Below are positions 1,136-22,263 of a DNA stretch of 37,069 bases, piece by piece. The stretch's first letter is position 1. Every line of letters begins with the position of its first letter. A program made the position numbers and the translations under genes. This stretch comes from a virus (lineage: Duplodnaviria; Heunggongvirae; Uroviricota; Caudoviricetes): the IMG/VR virus record IMGVR_UViG_2568526441_000003; one strand, written 5' to 3'. Below the pieces are notes generated by a model. The model was not told where the DNA came from, did not search any database, and was given only the letters and a program-made list of their open reading frames with translations.

Positions 1136-2812
1136 CTAAGCAACATGTAGTTCATCGTTGGCGGAAGTGGCTGCTTTGCGCTCCTGCTCAATAGCTAGAG
1201 ACTCTCTATATTCTTTCGCCTCTGCAAACATTGTCCAGTGGGCGTTGATGTTCATGTCTTCAATAACTGATTTGATTTCTTTTAAATTTACGTTAAAAAA
1301 CTCTTTTCGTGAGTTAATTTTATTGACCTGCTTTTCATTGAAAACTTTATGCAGATGGTTTTCTAATGATGGTGCATCATCACTATAAATCATCGCATGA
1401 ACATCGAACGAAAAAGGAACACTAGCATCTCCGAGTTCACGAACACGATCAAGTGGTTCAAGGCGGCGTGTCATTCCAATTTTATATACATCTTCGCCAA
1501 ATGAACCAATATTACTAATGATATAGACGTGGCCTGATCTGGTTTGTTGGGCCATAGAAATAGCTCGTTGATTTTTAGCTTCAGCTTCTTCATATTTTAA
1601 CTGTAGTTCAGCTATTTTTTGCTCTAAAGCTAAGCGTTGTTCTTCATTTGCAAGCATAAGTTCTTTCGTTGCTTTATTTATAGCTTGCTGAATAGCTTTT
1701 TCTTCTTTTTCAGCTTCTTTTATCGCTTTTTCATATTCTCTACGAGCTCTTTCCTCTTCACGAAGCTGTTCTTTAATCCTTCTTTGCTCTTCTTTTTCTT
1801 CGAGCATAATTTCATTAACTGCTACACCCCATTTTAGCTCGTTGAGTCTTGCCTGAAGATAGATGTCACTTATTTTTGCGGACCTAAAGGCAGAGCCATT
1901 GTAATTTACTAGTTGAAATGCATCTTTTATTTCTTGGGAAAGTTTTCCAAAATTGTTGTGTTTGACTTTTGATAAAATACTGTCAACTCTTCCATTGAAG
2001 GCATCCAAAACAAAGTTTATGGCAGTATTACGCCTGTTTTGCTCAACATAATCACACGAAGCAGCTTTATTAGTTTTTATTAATGATTTGGTTAACTCTC
2101 TGGCTTTTTGTAATTCCTTGCCTGCATCTGTAAATTCATAATTTTCTGCCAGCTCATCAAGTACACTACGGTTAGGGATGATCCATTCATCACCATAACC
2201 TTCAATTTTATTTTTCATTGATTTTGCAACTGCTTCATATTTTTCTGCAAACTCTTTAGCTTCATATGCTGAACCAGCAATCTCCTTTGCTCTTTCTTCT
2301 GCATCAGAAATAATTTTTACTGCATTGTCATTAGCATTTGAGATTAGCTCATTTGCTTTATTATTAGCATTATCAAGACGTTCTTTGGCTTTCAGGCGTG
2401 CATCGCGAGCGTCTTTGGTGATTGCTATAGCTTCGCTATTAGCGTTGCTTATTGTTATCTGAGCTTGATAATTTGCTTCGTTTACTGTTTTAGCCGCCTT
2501 AATTTGGGCTTCATCTATTTTTTGCTTGGCTATTGAGTCCGCATTTTTTATCTTATTCTCTGCATCCATTACTGCGCTGTGCAATTCTTCGTATTGCCAC
2601 AATGGTGCTGCTCGCCCTTCAAGCTCTGATAATTCTCGTACGGTCTGTGCTAGTTTTTCTTGATTTTCAATCAGTTGGTTAGAAAGGGCTATGTTGTTAG
2701 CTGTCAGGTTATCTATAGCCGCTTTGTGTTTTTTACTTTGTTTAAATAATATTACAGCTAGAACAGGGGCGAGAAATGCTAATAAGACTATAACGATGGC
2801 AAATGAATTCAT
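1136..2812 (-). CDS. cargo protein: N-terminal TM helix, long coiled coil, DUF4041-like region, C-terminal T5orf172 (GIY-YIG-like) domain; putative nuclease effector
   Basis: 558-aa ORF. N-terminus FAIVIVLLAFLAPVLAVILF is hydrophobic; long A/K/E/N-rich heptad-like stretches; C-terminal GHVYIISNIGSFGEDVYKIGMTRR matches the T5orf172/GIY-YIG-like signature from memory. Visibly AT-rich versus flanking phage DNA; SD-like AAGGA upstream of ATG; lies 20 nt downstream of cI stop on the same strand. Confidence 0.8.
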   Translation of the reverse strand: MNSFAIVIVLLAFLAPVLAVILFKQSKKHKAAIDNLTANNIALSNQLIENQEKLAQTVRELSELEGRAAPLWQYEELHSAVMDAENKIKNADSIAKQKIDEAQIKAAKTVNEANYQAQITISNANSEAIAITKDARDARLKAKERLDNANNKANELISNANDNAVKIISDAEERAKEIAGSAYEAKEFAEKYEAVAKSMKNKIEGYGDEWIIPNRSVLDELAENYEFTDAGKELQKARELTKSLIKTNKAASCDYVEQNRRNTAINFVLDAFNGRVDSILSKVKHNNFGKLSQEIKDAFQLVNYNGSAFRSAKISDIYLQARLNELKWGVAVNEIMLEEKEEQRRIKEQLREEERARREYEKAIKEAEKEEKAIQQAINKATKELMLANEEQRLALEQKIAELQLKYEEAEAKNQRAISMAQQTRSGHVYIISNIGSFGEDVYKIGMTRRLEPLDRVRELGDASVPFSFDVHAMIYSDDAPSLENHLHKVFNEKQVNKINSRKEFFNVNLKEIKSVIEDMNINAHWTMFAEAKEYRESLAIEQERKAATSANDELHVA

Positions 2813-6183: not shown

Positions 6184-8594
6184 GTCATGCCGATATGAAC
6201 AACTGCTGCGGCTTTAACGAAGCTGCCGCATCGTTCTCATGGAACAGCCCGAAAAAGGCCATTAACCCTTATCTGGACCCGGCGGAAGTTGCGCCGGTTT
6301 CTACGCTTTCAAACCTGATCACTCTGTACGCTGCCGATAACGAGCAGGAACAGCTGCGCCGTGAGGCGCTGAGTGATCAGGTCTGGGAGCGTTATTTCTT
6401 TAATGAATCCCGTGATCCTGTCCAGCGCGAAATGGAGCAGGATAAGCTCATTAGCCGGGCAAAGTTGGCGCATGAGCAGCAGCGTTTTAACCCGGACATG
6501 GTCATTCTGGCAGACGTCAGCGCCCAGCCCTCCCATATCAGCAAGCCGCTGATGCAACGTATTGAATACTTCAGCAGCCTGGGCAGGCCAAAGGCTTATT
6601 CCCGCTATTTACGTGAGACGATTAAGCCATGTCTGGAACGACTGGAGCATGTACGCGACAGCCAGCTATCTGCATCTTTTCGTTTTATGGCAAGCCATGT
6701 AGGGCTGGACGGCCTGCTGATTCTGCCTGAAATGAGTCAGGATCAGGTGAAACGCCTGTCTACCCTTGTCGCTGCGCATATGAGCATGTGCCTTGATGCA
6801 GCTTGTGGTGATTTGTATGCCACCGATGACGTTAAGCCAGAAGAAATCCGCAAGACATGGGAAAAGGTGGCAGCGGAAACCCTGCGTCTGGATGTCATCC
6901 CGCCTGCGTTTGAGCAACTCCGTCGGAAAAGAAACCGCCGTAAACCCGTGCCCTATGAACTCATTCCGGGTTCGCTGGCGCGTATGTTGTGCGCCGACTG
7001 GTGGTACCGGAAATTATGGAAAATGCGTTGCGAATGGTGGGAAGAGCAGTTGCGTGCTGTCTGCCTGGTCAGCAAAAAAGCATCTCCCTATGTCAGCTAT
7101 GAAGCCGTGATGCATAAACGTGAGCAGCGCCGCAAGTCACTGGAGTTTTTCCGTTCTCATGAACTGGTGAACGAAGAGGGCGACACGCTGGATATGGAAG
7201 ACGTGGTAAACGCCAGCAGCAGCAACCCGGCGCACCGCCGCAATGAGATGATGGCCTGTGTTAAAGGTCTGGAGCTTATCGCGGAAATGCGCGGTGACTG
7301 CGCCGTTTTCTACACCATCACCTGTCCGTCACGTTTCCATTCCACGCTAAATAACGGCAGGCCAAACCCGACCTGGACCAATGCGACAGTAAGACAAAGC
7401 AGCGATTATCTGGTCGGCATGTTTGCTGCATTTCGTAAGGCTATGCACAAAGCCGGGTTGCGCTGGTATGGCGTGCGGGTGGCTGAGCCGCATCATGACG
7501 GCACAGTTCACTGGCACCTGTTGTGTTTCATGCGCAAAAAAGACCGCCGCGCCATTACTGCATTGTTGCGTAAGTTTGCCATCCGTGAAGACCGCGAGGA
7601 GCTGGGCAATAACACGGGGCCACGCTTTAAGTCTGAGCTGATAAACCCGCGCAAAGGAACGCCGACAAGCTACATTGCGAAATATATCAGTAAGAATATT
7701 GACGGGCGTGGTCTGGCTGGCGAGATCAGTAAGGAAACGGGTAAATCCCTGCGTGATAACGCTGAATACGTTAATGCCTGGGCGTCTCTGCATCGTGTTC
7801 AGCAATTCCGCTTCTTTGGCATTCCGGGGCGTCAGGCTTACCGTGAACTGCGATTGCTGGCTGGTCAGGCGGCAAGGCAACAGGGTGACAAAAAAGCAGG
7901 TGCGCCGGTACTGGATAACCCGCGTCTTGATGCCATTCTGGCTGCTGCTGATGCTGGTTGTTTTGCCACCTACATCATGAAGCAGGGCGGCGTACTGGTT
8001 CCCCGCAAATATCACCTCATCAGAACCGCTTATGAAATCAACGAAGAGCCAACCGCCTATGGCGATCACGGTATTCGTATTTATGGCATCTGGTCACCCA
8101 TTGCAGAGGGCAAGATCTGCACTCATGCAGTGAAGTGGAAAATGGTTCGTAAGGCCGTTGACGTTCAGGAGGCGGCAGCCGACCAGGGCGCTTGCGCCCC
8201 TTGGACTCGTGGCAATAACTGTCCCCTTGCTGAAAATTTGAACCAACAAGGGAAAGACAAATCAGCTGATGGGGATACCAGAACGGACATTACCCGCATG
8301 AATGACAAGGAGTTGCACGATTATCTGCACAGTATGAACAAAAAAGAGCGCCGGGAACTGGCTGCAAGGTTACGCCTGGTGAAACCGAAACGGCGTAGAG
8401 ACTACAAACAGCGAATTACAGACCATCAACGACAGCAGCTCGTCTATGAACTGAAGTCCAGAGGATTTGATGGCAGCGAGAAAGAGGTCGATTTACTCCT
8501 TCGCGGCGGCAGCATTCCGTCAGGAGCAGGCCTGCGAATCTTCTATCGGAACCAGCGTTTGCAGGAAGATGATAAGTGGCGGAACCTGTATTAA
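6180..8594 (+). CDS. A: replication initiation endonuclease A (rolling-circle initiator, P2 gpA family)
   Basis: 804-aa ORF; size, position after the early operon, and segments such as HWHLL and YIAKYISK resemble P2/186 gpA as recalled. Confidence 0.85.
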
Positions 8595-8686
8595 TTACGC
8601 GGGTTAACAATTCGTGCTCTTAATAATACCAGGCATATCAGGCTGATGAACGTAAAAAAACGTTTTACATCAGTAAGATTATTATA

Positions 8687-8706
8687 TACTGTAAATATAA
8701 ACAGTG
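8687..8706. promoter_or_regulatory. LexA box (SOS operator) TACTGTAAATATAAACAGTG
   Basis: CTGT-N8-ACAG core at 8689..8704; 19 of 20 positions match the TACTGTATATATATACAGTA consensus as I recall it; overlaps a TATACT -10-like hexamer and lies about 45 nt upstream of the 8748 start codon. Confidence 0.7.
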
Positions 8707-8747
8707 GTTATGCATACAGTATTACTTGTGGTGTCATAGGAGGAAAA

Positions 8748-8936
8748 ATGCAGGACTATTTTTTGGAGTCTTTGAAGCTCCAGCGCATTGATTTTTTTCT
8801 TAAGCTTGTAGCGGCTAGTGAGTGTAGTGATGAAGAGAAGGGGCTGGCTTTGCAGTGGGTTTCTGAACTAACAGATGAACTCATGGCAAAAATCAGAACC
8901 CACGAATACAACCGCTCAATGGATGTCATCAGTTGA
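8748..8936 (+). CDS. small hypothetical protein, first gene of LexA-controlled module (possible Tum N-terminal counterpart)
   Basis: 62-aa ORF from ATG 8748 with GGAGGA SD 5 nt upstream; immediately downstream of the LexA box. Confidence 0.55.
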   Translation: MQDYFLESLKLQRIDFFLKLVAASECSDEEKGLALQWVSELTDELMAKIRTHEYNRSMDVIS

Positions 8937-8946
8937 GGTGACTTTT

Positions 8947-9180
8947 ATGCGCATTGAAATAATGATCGATAAAGAGCAGAAGATTAGCCAGTCTATCCTG
9001 GACGCCCTTGAATCCGAGCTTTACCGCAATCTGCGCCCCCTGTATCCAAAAACGGTAATTCGTATCCGCAAAGGTAGCTCTAACGGTGTGGAACTGACCG
9101 GACTGCAACTGGACGAAGAAAGGAAGCAAGTGATGAAAATTATGCAGAAGGTGTGGGAAGACGATAGCTGGCTGCATTAA
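8947..9180 (+). CDS. DinI-family protein (Tum-like SOS-inducible antirepressor module)
   Basis: 77 aa, MRIEIMIDKEQ...VWEDDSWLH; begins and ends like E. coli DinI (MRIEV...W...W) as recalled; own SD-like GAGGTG upstream; 186 Tum is known to carry a DinI-like C-terminal domain. Confidence 0.7.
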   Translation: MRIEIMIDKEQKISQSILDALESELYRNLRPLYPKTVIRIRKGSSNGVELTGLQLDEERKQVMKIMQKVWEDDSWLH

Positions 9181-9354
9181 GAAACGTTGCCCCCAGTAGG
9201 GTTCATTCTGATGGGGGCTAGTTTGAGCAACGAGTGAAACGAGGCGTTAGGTGGGAGGCCATTTTGATAAGTTATCACCCACTTTATACCAATAACAGAA
9301 CTGCGTAATAACTATTTACCTCGGGGGGAGATGTGAGCCATACAAATTTCAGTA

Positions 9355-10413
9355 TTAATTTTCAATTCCCTCCATTTTACAATGAGTTTTTTCCCAGAAC
9401 TGTAATACAACAGGACTAGCCCACTCTGGCATCAGTGCGTTATTTAAAAAACTGAAAACATCATGAGACGCATCAGCATTTTTTCTAAGGAATTTCCAGC
9501 CTTTTCTAGTATTTATCTCAACAATACCTAACCCACCATCATTAAACATATGCATCTTGAATTCAGGATTGTTTACACCTAGAGATTTTATTTCTTTTAT
9601 GTATGGACTATCTTCATCCATAAATATTTTCTCTATGTGCTTAGCACAATGATATATTTTATTTCGATAAGTTGATACGCTCACAGCGGTACGCGCTGTT
9701 GTTATTCCCATTCCTAATGGGGCATATGCTTTTCCATCCATCACTACGGGCAGATTTATTCCATTTTTTCTTAAGTTTGCAATATCTGAATCTGTAGTTG
9801 GATGAATACAAGCTAAGCCTGAAATACCTTTCATTTCAAATATTTCTGCTGCTTCTGGCCAGTTGCGTATGAATGTTTCTACCAAATCTCTTTGAGAAAA
9901 AAGATTTGGTTCTATGTTTTTATCATGATGTTTTATATCAATAAAAAGCACAGCGTTTGAGTACACCTTCAGGAATAATACCCACTCAGCACGATCTGAG
10001 TATTTTTTACTTGAACTTACTGGATTTAATGGCAGATGGAGGTGATGAATCCCCCAATCAGCCCATAGGTTATCCGTTCTTTTCGTCGCCTTTTTACCGC
10101 TTGTGTCATTGAATAATGTTAATGTTTTACTCTGATAAGGATTTACATCACCACCAGTAGTAAACAACATCTCGATTCTCTGCAATCCAACCCTTGCGCC
10201 ATCGTGAATATTTTCAGGAAATCGATCTGATTTTAAAATTATTCGTTTTTGTGGAGCAATGTAGCGTAAAAGAAAATCACACCACCTCAGTAGAGGATCG
10301 TGAAGATTTGAGTGCCCGGATTCATCATATAATAACCCAAATGCTTGAATTCCCTTCTCTGAAATTTCGTCAATATCTTTGATTAGATCAATATTTTTTC
10401 GTGCGTCCAACAT
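9355..10413 (-). CDS. uncharacterized 352-aa cargo protein at the tin/old-equivalent variable locus; candidate defense or exclusion gene
   Basis: Long ORF on the strand opposite the early operon, visibly AT-rich, GGAG SD 6 nt upstream of ATG; I recognise no family. Confidence 0.65.
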   Translation of the reverse strand: MLDARKNIDLIKDIDEISEKGIQAFGLLYDESGHSNLHDPLLRWCDFLLRYIAPQKRIILKSDRFPENIHDGARVGLQRIEMLFTTGGDVNPYQSKTLTLFNDTSGKKATKRTDNLWADWGIHHLHLPLNPVSSSKKYSDRAEWVLFLKVYSNAVLFIDIKHHDKNIEPNLFSQRDLVETFIRNWPEAAEIFEMKGISGLACIHPTTDSDIANLRKNGINLPVVMDGKAYAPLGMGITTARTAVSVSTYRNKIYHCAKHIEKIFMDEDSPYIKEIKSLGVNNPEFKMHMFNDGGLGIVEINTRKGWKFLRKNADASHDVFSFLNNALMPEWASPVVLQFWEKTHCKMEGIEN

Positions 10414-10807
10414 ACTAACTCCGTTTAAATATAATTTTTTAGTATTTCAGTTAATTAATATCTATACGCCGTTATAGCTGAATTTTCCGGTGATTTCAGG
10501 GCACATTAACCAATTTAGATAATACTATAGTAATGGTTGGGCTGATTTTTCAAGAACAAAAGTAATTTTCAAGCTTTGTAACATGTTGATTTTCCACTTT
10601 TCGCTCAAGCGGGCTTTCATCTTTGCAAGCCCATATGTTCGTTTTTCAAGCGATTATTCAGATACGTTAACTTCCCATGGCAGTGCATAACTATGCTGCA
10701 TGAAATCGCATGATCGATCGAGGATCGTCTATGCTTAGACCAGCCAGAAATGGCGGGCTTTTGCTCATGTCATGCAGCTGCATGAAAACCACTGCATAAA
10801 GTGGGCA

Positions 10808-10826
10808 GGCGTGGCGGGGATACGAG
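10808..10826. other. candidate cos site (cohesive-end region)
   Basis: GGCGTGGCGGGGA at 10808..10820 matches the first 13 nt of the 19-nt cohesive end of 186/P2 as recalled from memory (GGCG[T/A]GGCGGGGAAAGCA-); GC-rich islet inside AT-rich DNA; flanked by a direct repeat GCTGCATGAAA (10696..10706 and 10777..10787) and a 14-bp palindrome CATGCAGCTGCATG (10771..10784). Confidence 0.45.
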
Positions 10827-10946
10827 CGCGCGCTAGAAACGTTTACTGATATTCTTGTAGTACATTGCATTTTTCTTTTTTTATGTCATATCATTAGCCA
10901 TTTGAATAGGACATTATTATCAATTTGTTGTCTCTGAGGATAAGTT

Positions 10947-12728
10947 ATGAATTTTGATGCAACACCACTAAATATAAAAAACATTCTATCTGTAAAACAA
11001 AGATATGTTATTCCTCGTAATCAACGTGAGTTTAGTTGGGAAAAGCTTCAGCTTGAAGAGTTATGGCAAGATATTGTCAGAAACATAAGGTTGAATGAAG
11101 ATGGACAGAACTTGGAGTGTTCAGAATATTTTATAGGGACTATTGTTCTTTCTGGAGCAGATAGTGATGATGTATTAGAAGTGGTTGATGGACAACAACG
11201 ATTTTCAGTTATTACTATATTGCTTTCATTAATATCGCGTAAATTGCGTTCCTTAGGGCAAGATTCATTAGCGGATGATATATTTAAAACATATATCGTT
11301 ACTGTGAGTCCTACATTTAGCAGAAGCCAATTAGCTTCAAATGGTGAGACATTTATTGAAAAATTAGCAAAAAATAGCGATAGAACATATTTTAAGTTAA
11401 AATATCAAGATCGCGAAGAGCATCAAGTTGATGAATCTTGTGAAGAGGATGTACGTATAAGTTATGCAGGAATTTTTCTTTCTAGAAAACTAGGGAGGAA
11501 ATCACTCTGTTCTGCATTGTTGCGAGATGGTGCAAAACATTATAATAACCAAGATTATATATTTTGTTTGACTGCTGTATATAGAATGATTACCAATTAT
11601 TTGAAGTTGGTAAAAATATCTGTAGGTAAGGAGGATGATGCTTATGATATTTTTGAAGTGTTGAATGCTCGAGGGATAAACTTAAGTTCAATTGATTTGA
11701 TAAAGAATAAAGTATTCCAAACTTGCACTCAAACATATCCGGTAGATATTGCAAAAACAAAATGGGATTATATCGTTACTCAAATTGAGTCTAGGGATAG
11801 TAATAGCACTATTGCTGATTATATTAGAACGTGGTGGCTTTCTAAGTATAATTATATTGGAGAAGATCAACTTTATCGTGCTTTTAAACGTGAGATTCAA
11901 GATGAGAATACTTTATTGTCATCAGCATCATTTCTGAACGAATTATATGATGATGTTGAATTATACTGTAAAATAATAGCGCCAAATACAGATGACTGGC
12001 CTCAACCTGATCAGCGTGAAATTTACAACTCGTTAAAAGCATTCGAGATTTTTAATGTGAGTATTCCTCGACCATTTGTACTCTCATTACTTAGAAAACG
12101 TAAAGAGAAACCGAGAGCCCTTACACAATCAATGCTGATAGAATGTTTGAAGTCCTTAGAGTCATTTCACTTTAAGTTTAATGCAGTATGTCGTCTAAGA
12201 CCATCTGGAATCGATGCAAAATATTCTGTATTAGCAGTAAGAATGAATAAGGCATTAAATAAAAGAGATGTTGAGGGTGTTATTAATGACGCGTTAGATT
12301 ATTTTACACAGAAAGGACCTTCAGAAAATATATTCAAACAAGCATTTTCAAAGAATATTGTTTATACAAATAAAAAGTCTGGGCAAAGGAAGTTGATTGT
12401 TTATATTTTTGACAAATTGGAACGTATCAGACGAGGGACGCGAGAGTTAAAAATGGATATAGTTTCTTTGGAACACATATCATCTCAAAGCAAAACTAAC
12501 GAGTCAGTCGTGGGTATGATTGGTAATTTACTACCACTCTGTTTTTCACTTAATGAAGATTGCAAAAATTATGAGTTGCACAAAAAAATAGAATCTTATA
12601 AAAAATCTGATTTAAAATTAGTTACAGAGTTTGTTAGTGAGTCAGAAGCAAGAGAACATAAATGGGATGATTCATTAATAAAAGAAAGAACAGATGGCTT
12701 GGCGTTAGAAACGTTTGCTAAAATATAA
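10947..12728 (+). CDS. DUF262/DUF1524 (GmrSD-family) putative type IV modification-dependent restriction endonuclease
   Basis: 593 aa; N-terminal ParB-like DUF262 signature (NQREFSWEKLQLEELWQDI ... VVDGQQR) and C-terminal His-Me-finger-like segment (LEHISSQSK); GAGGA SD upstream; visibly AT-rich. Confidence 0.75.
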   Translation: MNFDATPLNIKNILSVKQRYVIPRNQREFSWEKLQLEELWQDIVRNIRLNEDGQNLECSEYFIGTIVLSGADSDDVLEVVDGQQRFSVITILLSLISRKLRSLGQDSLADDIFKTYIVTVSPTFSRSQLASNGETFIEKLAKNSDRTYFKLKYQDREEHQVDESCEEDVRISYAGIFLSRKLGRKSLCSALLRDGAKHYNNQDYIFCLTAVYRMITNYLKLVKISVGKEDDAYDIFEVLNARGINLSSIDLIKNKVFQTCTQTYPVDIAKTKWDYIVTQIESRDSNSTIADYIRTWWLSKYNYIGEDQLYRAFKREIQDENTLLSSASFLNELYDDVELYCKIIAPNTDDWPQPDQREIYNSLKAFEIFNVSIPRPFVLSLLRKRKEKPRALTQSMLIECLKSLESFHFKFNAVCRLRPSGIDAKYSVLAVRMNKALNKRDVEGVINDALDYFTQKGPSENIFKQAFSKNIVYTNKKSGQRKLIVYIFDKLERIRRGTRELKMDIVSLEHISSQSKTNESVVGMIGNLLPLCFSLNEDCKNYELHKKIESYKKSDLKLVTEFVSESEAREHKWDDSLIKERTDGLALETFAKI

Positions 12729-12735
12729 GTTCAGT

Positions 12736-12754
12736 GGCAGGTATAGTACCTGCC
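12736..12754 (+). terminator. hairpin (8-bp stem, 3-nt loop) after the GmrSD-like gene
   Basis: GGCAGGTA-TAG-TACCTGCC followed by a moderately T-rich ATTATTCAATTT; lies between convergent gene ends. Confidence 0.4.
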
Positions 12755-12764
12755 ATTATTCAAT

Positions 12765-13802
12765 TTACATACACTCCACTGAGTATTCACTGAATGAGAT
12801 GATGTTTTTTTTAGCCCATTCATTAAGTTGCAGAATATGTTTTTGAATTGGTAGTAACTCATTCATAACAAATACTTTCGCGGCCTTTTCCACATCCCCA
12901 AACCCCCCAACATTATTTGGCATAATCCCCATCATTTGCGGCGGCACTCGGTGTGCTGCCATCATGTCATCGCGGCTCACGTTCTTGATATTCAGAAACT
13001 CATCCTTCGCTGCGACTTCTGACAACGGGATAATCTGAAGTCCGTCCTTTTTGCCGTTAGGCGAGTACATAAACAGATTGCGGAAGTTGCCTGGACCTTT
13101 GGCGCTTTTCATCGCGTTGCGGAGGTTGTTCACATCCTCCTGATTCTGCGCGGCGTCGGTCATGTACATGATGAAGCCTGCATGACTACCGTTGATGTAA
13201 TACTTACGGCGGAACAGCGTGGCGGATTCGTTGAGCAGGGCGGATGGAATGGCAGAAAGATAGCCGGGCAGGCCGTAGATCTCCTGGTTGATGTCCGGTT
13301 CCATCAGATGAAAAATGCTGCCTTTCGTGAACTGATACTGCTGGGTTGTCATACCGTATTGCACAAACCAGTAGGTATCCAGGTCTAACCCGCGTCGGGT
13401 GTATTTTGCCAGCGCAGGCTCAAGGGCGATAACTTCACCGAATCGGTTCGTGCGTTTCTCCAGGTAGGCGTTACCAAATACCAGATAGTCCTGCACAAAA
13501 CGCGAAAAAGCCTGTTGGCTGAGCAGCGGATGAGGGATATAGGTACTGGTCAGAATGTTGCACTTTACTGCAATCGGGGAACTGTGATGCACGGCAGCGC
13601 GGAAGGTGCGCGCCAGTCCGTCAAAGCTGACGGGAGGCTCATACCAGCGATCTGTCTGAACACATTCCACATAGTCCAGCAGTTCGCGGCGGTCAAGTAC
13701 TGGAACGGGATCACCGAAGCTGAATGCTTCGGCTGAAGTCTGGTTTTTATGCTGGATCTGATTCGTCGCCGCAGCGCGGTTTTTCTTACTCTTTCCCATC
13801 AA
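12765..13802 (-). CDS. Q: capsid portal protein Q
   Basis: 345-aa ORF, leftward, overlapping the terminase gene start by 4 nt; matches P2 Q position and size. Confidence 0.85.
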   Translation of the reverse strand: MMGKSKKNRAAATNQIQHKNQTSAEAFSFGDPVPVLDRRELLDYVECVQTDRWYEPPVSFDGLARTFRAAVHHSSPIAVKCNILTSTYIPHPLLSQQAFSRFVQDYLVFGNAYLEKRTNRFGEVIALEPALAKYTRRGLDLDTYWFVQYGMTTQQYQFTKGSIFHLMEPDINQEIYGLPGYLSAIPSALLNESATLFRRKYYINGSHAGFIMYMTDAAQNQEDVNNLRNAMKSAKGPGNFRNLFMYSPNGKKDGLQIIPLSEVAAKDEFLNIKNVSRDDMMAAHRVPPQMMGIMPNNVGGFGDVEKAAKVFVMNELLPIQKHILQLNEWAKKNIISFSEYSVECM

Positions 13803-21076: not shown

Positions 21077-21515
21077 ATTGCAGAAGGTGGACGACTGGCT
21101 GAGTGCCTTGCTGGCGAATCTGGAGCCAGCCGCAAGAAGCCGTATGATGCGCCAGCTGGCGCAGGAACTGCGCCGGACACAGCAGCAGAATATCAGGATG
21201 CAGCGCAATCCTGATGGCAGCAGTTATGAACCGCGCAGGGTAACAGCACGCAGCAAAAAAGGCCGCATCAAACGTCAGATGTTTGCAAAGCTGCGCACCA
21301 CAAAATACCTGAAAACTGCCGCCAGCGCCGACTCTGCCAGCGTACAGTTTGAAGGCAAGGTGCAGCGTATTGCCCGTGTTCACCATTACGGCCTGCGTGA
21401 TCGCGTCAGTCGCAAAGGACCGGAGGTCCGTTACGCAGAGCGCCGCCTGCTGGGTCTTAATGGTGAGTCTTATGTTCTAACTCTTGATATATTGAATAGA
21501 TTCCTTCTGTCTTGA
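21069..21515 (+). CDS. S: tail completion protein S (3' end runs into AT-rich insertion)
   Basis: 148 aa; synteny; last about 19 codons lie in AT-rich DNA and overlap the convergent cargo ORF. Confidence 0.7.
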   Translation: MAELQKVDDWLSALLANLEPAARSRMMRQLAQELRRTQQQNIRMQRNPDGSSYEPRRVTARSKKGRIKRQMFAKLRTTKYLKTAASADSASVQFEGKVQRIARVHHYGLRDRVSRKGPEVRYAERRLLGLNGESYVLTLDILNRFLLS

Positions 21516-22263
21516 ATTCACCATATGCCCAATGAATTGCATTTTTTTGTTCAGTTAGAATATATTTCCTAACTTTTTTAGAATAGTGAATGGTCAGTAT
21601 AAAACCCAAAGAAATCCATAATAGAATAAATATAGTTGTTGGGGCAAAGGAATAGATAAAAAATTTGTCTTTAACGAAATTCTTGACTTCTTCATCAATG
21701 TAAGCATTCCCTTCATCAGTGGTTAGTAGTTTACAAAGAATTTCTTTATGTTCGATAGTTAATGATTTGTACTTCTCTGTACTGGCAGAGGATGACTCTT
21801 CGCAATCATCCTTTGATATTTCCCAATCAGGAGTGGTTAATATTGTAGCTGCAGTCGCCATTTTTTTTGACATATAAAATGATTCACCGGACTTTATCCA
21901 ATAAAGCAATGTGCTATTTGGTGGGGTTCTAATGGCTTGGATGAAAACTGGACCAAAAAGATAAATTGCACACAAAAAAAGAAGCGAAAATAGAACCGTG
22001 AATGATTTTTCAGCCCATGTGATAGTAGGCAGCCTTTTTAATGATATTTTTATAAGAAAAAAATTTAATATAAACGCAGGTATTCCTGATTTTTTCAAAA
22101 TTACATCATGAGATTTTCTATATTTGAATAGTGCTCTTATAACTATCGTCACCAAAGTTATAACAGCTCCAATAATGGAAATCCATGCGGCAAGTGCCGC
22201 TGCTGGGGTGTTTAAAAATTCAGCATTAAATATATTAGAACTTATTGGATTCATAACACTCAT
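21457..22263 (-). CDS. cargo: uncharacterized 268-aa multi-pass membrane protein inserted between S and V; candidate exclusion or abortive-infection protein
   Basis: Visibly AT-rich; strong SD AGGTGGA 4 nt upstream of ATG; at least four hydrophobic helices (e.g. AAALAAWISIIGAVITLVTIVI, FTVLFSLLFLCAIYLFGPVFI, IYSFAPTTIFILLWISLGFILTI) around an acidic/Ser-rich soluble segment; opposite strand to the late operon. Confidence 0.7.
   Translation of the reverse strand: MSVMNPISSNIFNAEFLNTPAAALAAWISIIGAVITLVTIVIRALFKYRKSHDVILKKSGIPAFILNFFLIKISLKRLPTITWAEKSFTVLFSLLFLCAIYLFGPVFIQAIRTPPNSTLLYWIKSGESFYMSKKMATAATILTTPDWEISKDDCEESSSASTEKYKSLTIEHKEILCKLLTTDEGNAYIDEEVKNFVKDKFFIYSFAPTTIFILLWISLGFILTIHYSKKVRKYILTEQKNAIHWAYGEFKTEGIYSIYQELEHKTHH

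Follow-up and report, generated by a model that had tools for sequence, protein, structure and literature searches.

PD-T4-7 is one of the 21 systems recovered in the functional selection performed by Vassallo, Doering, Littlehale, Teodoro and Laub in 2022 (Nat Microbiol; PMC9519451). In its published form, it is a single 1059-nt ORF from Escherichia coli UMB0103. Cloned under its own promoter, it was validated as a defence against phage, T4 being its target, grouped among the systems giving abortive infection (Abi) defence, and labelled as "RelE toxin-like" by its discoverers (PMC9519451). The corresponding protein is RRN43039.1, encoded at RRWT01000001:337619-338677. Seven of the 21 systems came from P2-like prophages, and four of these seven lay between the genes for the replication endonuclease and the portal (gpA-gpQ) (PMC9519451), a cos-adjacent locus defined as a defence hotspot by Rousset et al. 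in 2022 (PMC9122126). The tin and old genes of phage P2 share with PD-T4-7 both this hotspot and the role of prophage exclusion cargo.

Regarding the toxin-like character of PD-T4-7, the closest terms of comparison are the type II toxins YafO, YafQ, RelE, HigB, and YoeB, together with two single-chain proteins of analogous architecture. CapRel(SJ46) is a fused toxin-antitoxin whose toxin is a tRNA pyrophosphokinase and not a RelE fold (PMC9712102), whereas Cami1 is a CARF-RelE fusion (PDB 8phb/8phj) activated by cyclic oligoadenylate through its CARF domain, which is lacking in PD-T4-7. Neither of them resembles the C-terminal domain of PD-T4-7, and the likeness is one of architecture, not of membership. 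A survey of multidomain RelE/ParE toxins published by Gerdes in 2025 does not mention PD-T4-7 and explicitly excludes multidomain proteins for which no antitoxin is identifiable.

Identity and expression signals of the gene

The gene described here is found in a stretch of viral DNA of 37,069 nt, referred to as the window. The gene and its candidate expression signals are as follows:

9355-10413, minus strand: coding sequence assigned to PD-T4-7 by its match to PADLOC PDLC04066, with an ATG start, 352 aa plus stop, and the same 1059 nt as the published ORF
10419-10422, minus strand: Shine-Dalgarno sequence GGAG, 5 nt 5' of the ATG, read directly from the sequence
10524-10553, minus strand: sigma-70-like promoter TTGAAA-18-TATAGT, 10/12 in a consensus scan, a pattern match only

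The sequence-only reading of this DNA had considered the ORF unassignable to any family, and had proposed it as an undescribed single-gene defence or Abi function. The first claim holds for Pfam, NCBIfam, and PHROGs, none of which gave a family match, making the failure to assign the gene understandable. It does not hold for PADLOC, where the protein matches the PD-T4-7 model PDLC04066 with E = 3.9e-144 and 477.8 bits, residues 1-342 covering positions 1-335 of the 337 in the profile, and a second PD-T4-7 model, PDLC04065, with E = 3e-39. The sole Pfam match, DUF2710, is at chance level (E = 0.091), and the PADLOC scan at E <= 1 returned solely the two PD-T4-7 models and PDC-S13 (E = 0.015), leaving the gene with no sequence relation to tin or old. 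Neither Pfam nor PADLOC gave a match to Tin, Old, or any ATPase, and no TOPRIM domain was found by Pfam, so these identities were ruled out, in agreement with the earlier statement that the protein is not Tin, not Old, and has no Walker motifs.

Judging from the family HMM, the length of ~350 aa, and the single-gene architecture without an obligatory partner, the ORF almost certainly belongs to the PD-T4-7 family. The comparison with the published gene detected no difference: the HMM match is full-length, the single ORF has an equal length of 1059 nt, the origin is also E. coli, and a weak YafO-like signal appears at the identical residues 118-164. On these sequence grounds, both are very probably the same allele. 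Given this full-length match, the gene was already known; its defence phenotype and its hotspot were also published in 2022, and it is not a new system. The proposal of a single-gene Abi function therefore agrees with the published PD-T4-7 (PMC9519451), but the function is not undescribed. Homology to a non-defence protein was looked for and not found, so the defence reading stands.

According to the ORF list, the placement and length of the ORF are exactly those given by the earlier reading, it starts with ATG, and its orientation is indeed opposite to that of the gpA-like early operon and DinI. The AT-richness and the GGAG that it had pointed out are also present. The GC content is 0.35-0.36 across 9501-10500, while the gpA-like replication gene has 0.50-0.54 and the structural genes 0.52-0.60, and the AT-rich island around the ORF (GC 0.31-0.38) extends from ~9500 to 13000. 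The sigma-70-like match lies on the same strand, ~110 bp upstream of the ORF, and would fall inside the upstream stretch cloned by Vassallo et al., provided that their 424-bp flank is the upstream one. No structured RNA was found in the 3' spacer at 9185-9354 (z = -0.4).

The right end of the prophage

The surroundings of the gene contain the following elements:

8687-8706, plus strand: LexA box TACTGTAAATATAAACAGTG, near-consensus, with a chance expectation of 0
8748-8936, plus strand: ORF of 62 aa with no family, downstream of the LexA box
8947-9180, plus strand: DinI-like gene (Pfam E = 2.5e-22)
10808-10826, plus strand: cos cohesive-end sequence GGCGTGGCGGGGATACGAG, aligned with the annotated 19-nt cos of phages 186 (NC_001317) and P2 (NC_001895)
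10947-12728, plus strand: GmrSD-like type IV restriction enzyme of the HEC-06 type, 593 aa, located past cos and before the portal gene, separate from PD-T4-7

The LexA box, the 62-aa ORF, and DinI constitute an SOS-controlled module that closes the early region. Such a LexA/DinI module of small ORFs had been anticipated from the letters, and both the box and the Pfam match to DinI support it. Its position is presumably equivalent to that of the LexA-controlled tum gene of phage 186.

The alignment to the cohesive ends of 186 and P2 also establishes the cos site that had been put forward as a candidate. The first 13 nt are the same as in the cos of phage 186 and the last 6 are different, and the site is embedded in a conserved block of ~150 bp (10682-10834) common to P2-like phages of several genera. 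To the right of the cut site, the likeness to 186 and P2 persists for just ~35 bp and gives way to the AT-rich HEC-06 cassette; the PD-T4-7 ORF is located ~395 bp from cos. An identical locus is present in E. coli MS6198 (RefSeq), within a 186-type P2-like prophage beside rcdA, whose genes include those for the integrase, CI, CII, Fil, the replication endonuclease, DinI, the portal, and the terminase. The right-hand end of this prophage, of the 186-type P2-like kind, carries PD-T4-7 as cargo, and the view of this tin/old-equivalent locus of P2 as a site for defence cargo matches the hotspot of PMC9519451 and PMC9122126. The ORF had been described as the single long one at this site; it is the sole long one between DinI and cos, but the hotspot holds a second cargo gene past cos.

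This second gene matches Pfam GmrSD_N (E = 2e-32) and GmrSD_C (E = 2e-11), PADLOC HEC-06 (E = 9e-75), and phrog_21165, and the DGQQR motif of its product appears as VVDGQQRF. The interval between cos and the portal gene, where it is inserted, spans only ~170-190 bp in phages 186 and P2. HEC-06 has been experimentally validated by Payne et al. in 2024 (bioRxiv 10.1101/2024.01.29.577857).

Two more cargo genes were observed elsewhere in the prophage. A 558-aa DUF4041 protein (1136-2812, minus strand), matching PADLOC PD-Lambda-1 with E = 2e-120, is encoded in an AT-rich stretch flanked by the genes for the integrase and the CI repressor, and represents a third known defence gene at a different hotspot. 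A 268-aa DUF6216 protein (21457-22263, minus strand; Pfam E = 6e-13), with no match in PADLOC, is encoded in another AT-rich island, of GC 0.33-0.36, flanked by baseplate gene V on one side and the tail/virion-morphogenesis genes on the other; in Vassallo et al. this site is hotspot no. 2, the "fun/Z" locus of P2 (PMC9519451). It is this cargo gene, and not the PD-T4-7 ORF, that truly lacks an assignment, and it would be the stronger candidate for a defence role not yet described.

Conserved residues and domain organization

Two domains can be distinguished in the PD-T4-7 protein, with the elements listed below:

9904-10296, minus strand: predicted N-terminal RelE/ParE-superfamily (YafO-like) domain, ~residues 40-170, from the structural model
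10036-10080, minus strand: motif R112-T-D114-x-L-W-A-D-W120-G-I-H-H124-L-H126, candidate first half of the active site, from 93 homologues
9925-9939, minus strand: D159...H163, both invariant, candidate second half of the active site
9379-9891, minus strand: C-terminal orphan-fold domain, ~residues 175-345, proposed sensor/autoinhibitor
9682-9717, minus strand: Gly/Thr-rich loop PLGMGITTARTA, residues 233-244, from conservation

Thirteen residues are invariant in the 93 aligned homologues (R57, N91, D114, L116, W120, H124, H126, D159, H163, P186, G236, A240, and T242), most of them sitting in the segments RTDxLWADWGIHHLHL (112-127) and FIDxxxH (157-163). R112, T113, W117, A118, D119, I122, and H123 are conserved in at least 90% of these homologues. 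The last beta-strand of the RelE-like domain, modelled at E154-162, has D159...H163 at its end.

Few stretches of the family are as conserved as the loop PLGMGITTARTA of the C-terminal domain, with G236, A240, and T242 invariant and G234 and T238 conserved in at least 90% of the sequences. Its residues 236-241 form the sole internal segment of the model with a pLDDT below 50. This loop may be a flexible functional element of the orphan domain, and would be a candidate for a regulatory or ligand contact. Among solved structures, no meaningful sequence relatives were found, all having E >= 0.03.

Relationship to the RelE/YafO toxins

The published RelE-like label derives from a single HHpred match to YafO_toxin over residues 118-164, with a probability of 51% and E = 2.7, and for this reason an independent test of it was made. 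In the predicted model, the N-terminal domain folds into a compact alpha/beta unit made of a strand, helices, and a sheet of three strands, and its top-scoring structural neighbours are all mRNA interferases, namely RelE, HigB, YoeB, and YafQ. In hhalign, where comparison with a YafO profile gave P = 0.007-0.014, a profile of 17 YafO-family proteins is colinear with PD-T4-7 residues 58-161 at P = 0.014. After trimming to the domain, the score of 21.5 exceeds all 30 column-shuffled controls, whose maximum is 17.8, as well as those of the reversed profile (12.6) and of the C-terminal half of PD-T4-7 (16.9). This alignment of profiles places H124 and H126 (giHHLHL) on the invariant H60 and H62 of YafO (vaHiHL). 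The signal is seen solely with the YafO family profile, and nothing was obtained when the PD-T4-7 family profile was aligned with the single E. coli YafO and YafQ sequences. Similarly, a Pfam scan of the 93 members at E <= 10 gave no recurring toxin family, with one lone match to ParE_toxin (E = 0.042). Overall, the RelE-like nature of the N-terminal domain is backed by moderate evidence from three independent directions.

Contrary to the classical type II toxins, PD-T4-7 has no adjacent gene for a cognate antitoxin, nor any conserved and tightly linked partner. It is also ~3.5 times larger than YafO, YafQ, RelE, HigB, or YoeB, with an added N-terminal helix and an orphan C-terminal domain of 180 residues, and it remains below the threshold of every Pfam toxin model, its RNase activity being putative. 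Since there is no linked partner, and the half-length relatives are frameshifted, as discussed below, PD-T4-7 would be at most a fused or antitoxin-less derivative, and not a classical type II module.

Distribution and neighbourhood of the family

The exact 352-aa protein is present on at least 1000 public contigs. The gene was found in 48 of 5426 complete E. coli genomes, single-copy, chromosomal, and with at least 99.8% identity, and in all 48 RefSeq labels the product as a "hypothetical protein". An exhaustive profile search yielded 3,466 clusters at 50% identity, 1,193 of them at E <= 1e-30, which makes the family very large. No relatives were found in sequenced phage genomes (INPHARED), and those on plasmids are solely distant (24-32% identity), from Hymenobacter, Priestia, and Campylobacter.

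The settings of the homologues are all different: examples are an islet in Methylophaga, an integrase/AlpA island in Providencia, an element with multiple recombinases in Burkholderia, and a lone chromosomal gene in Aeromonas. No recurrent neighbour or antitoxin was found across 34 + 5 loci. Among the 127 ORFs flanking homologues at the 34 further loci, no Pfam or PADLOC family appears more than four times, the flanking genes being recombinases and transposases, housekeeping genes, and defence genes (type IIG RM, AbiEii, SIR2-HerA, Bil, and PD-T4-2). This is evidence that, throughout a very large family, PD-T4-7 needs no partner to work.

In the integrase/AlpA island of Providencia alcalifaciens (L005), which also carries an AAA_15/AAA_21 ATPase system, a homologue with 67% identity (8001-9035) is found directly downstream of a gene for a PvuRts1I-like/SRA enzyme (6796-7671). 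This neighbour echoes the GmrSD-like neighbour in the window. A general linkage to type IV restriction enzymes was nevertheless discarded, as the pairing, seen in the window and in Providencia, was not seen at the 34 other loci, judging from their 25 commonest neighbour families.

Natural split forms, consisting of toxin-only or sensor-only relatives, were also considered and rejected. The candidates turned out to be a gene whose sequence is spread over three frames, and a copy cut short on a contig of 1.2 kb. The broken copies are metagenomic (L053, 702-1841; L054, 730-1839) and would be pseudogenes or assembly errors; because of the breaks, gene callers report separate N-terminal-only and C-terminal-only proteins, and such frameshifted copies represent a trap when inferring split toxin/antitoxin forms. 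Apart from these, a large subfamily of proteins of ~285-300 aa (P0217-P0267) covers the profile from position 10 to ~300, without the last 35-50 residues, and probably corresponds to the PADLOC model PDLC04065.

Proposed mechanism and alternative explanations

If a RelE-like toxin is tolerated without any antitoxin gene, PD-T4-7 must restrain itself. The observed basis consists of the family identity, the conserved residues, a predicted model whose N-terminal domain is RelE-like in fold, and no partner gene. On this basis, residues ~40-170 would constitute a RelE/ParE-superfamily (BECR-fold) endoribonuclease domain, nearest to YafO/YafQ. The invariant H124, H126, D159, and H163 would make up its active site, with R57, N91, R112, and D114 also conserved. 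The orphan-fold domain (~175-345) is predicted to be packed against the nuclease domain, and, as long as the cell is not infected, nuclease activity would be blocked either by this domain or by the closed shape of the protein as a whole. Upon infection by T4, a cue would free the nuclease, which may then cut RNA, most likely ribosome-bound mRNA, bringing translation to a halt. The infected cell would die or arrest before the release of the phage, consistent with the Abi phenotype taken from the literature. By analogy, this self-restraint may be likened to that of CapRel, where toxin and antitoxin are fused, and of Cami1, where a sensor is fused to RelE. We consider the explanation as a whole, that is, a RelE-like endoribonuclease restrained by its C-terminal domain and released by T4 to produce Abi, to be reasonably probable, while for the autoinhibited RNase mechanism as such the chances seem to be about even.

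A protein with a RelE-like fold could also have a different chemistry, acting as a ParE-like gyrase poison, a colicin D/E5-like tRNA or rRNA nuclease, or a metal-dependent hydrolase of the HxH...D...H type. This would be in line with the functionally mixed character of the RelE/ParE fold family (PMC11980606), but we regard it as unlikely. The best structural neighbours of PD-T4-7 are all mRNA interferases, and its histidine pair aligns with the invariant one of the RNase YafO. YafQ, YoeB, and HigB typically use histidines as general acids or bases, whereas, to our knowledge, catalytic histidines are not required in ParE toxins. Far less credit can be given to the earlier idea of a single-gene defence protein not described before, perhaps a minimal HEPN RNase on account of the Rx4H motif RNKIYH (250-255). 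Even though the blank results in Pfam, NCBIfam, and PHROGs and the "hypothetical protein" label in all 48 genomes would suit it, this idea is refuted by the PADLOC match to PD-T4-7 and by the lack of conservation of the motif, with R250 found in 23 and H255 in 8 of the 93 homologues. Moreover, no HEPN structures were found among the fold matches of the PD-T4-7 model.

Another explanation would join PD-T4-7 and the GmrSD-like HEC-06 into one two-gene anti-T-even module flanking cos, in which, for instance, the restriction enzyme would act on modified DNA and PD-T4-7 may provide back-up Abi when restriction is inhibited. Both types of gene have a bearing on T-even phages, whose cytosines are modified, HEC-06 is present in 47 of the 48 E. 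coli genomes with PD-T4-7, and the Providencia homologue adjoins another modification-dependent enzyme, with PvuRts1I-like N-terminal and SRA domains. However, PD-T4-7 alone on a 1.65-kb fragment was protective (PMC9519451), and HEC-06 is active alone according to the literature. The two genes point away from each other, with cos and 533 bp lying between them, and the co-occurrence reflects a single, nearly clonal prophage lineage, since the E. coli copies are at least 99.8% identical. In addition, there is no GmrSD or type IV enzyme among the 25 commonest Pfam/PADLOC families of the 127 neighbours at the 34 other loci. Such a module is, in our opinion, quite improbable, and the self-restrained RelE-like endoribonuclease is preferred.

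Concluding remarks

As a discovery, this finding is of little weight, the gene being known, and its value would lie in a sharpened and testable hypothesis for the mechanism of PD-T4-7. The specifics offered are a RelE/YafO-like predicted fold, the candidate catalytic residues H124, H126, D159, and H163, a C-terminal domain of orphan fold that may act as sensor or autoinhibitor, and independence from a partner. It also illustrates that general annotation (Pfam, NCBIfam, PHROGs, and RefSeq) overlooks PD-T4-7, whereas PADLOC and DefenseFinder identify it at once. We tentatively suggest, at somewhat less than even chances, that PD-T4-7 is a YafO-like mRNase kept inactive by an orphan domain, covalently attached to it, that would directly sense a product of T-even phages. 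If true, PD-T4-7 would found an antitoxin-less, single-chain branch of the RelE/ParE superfamily, outside the 2025 survey of multidomain toxins.
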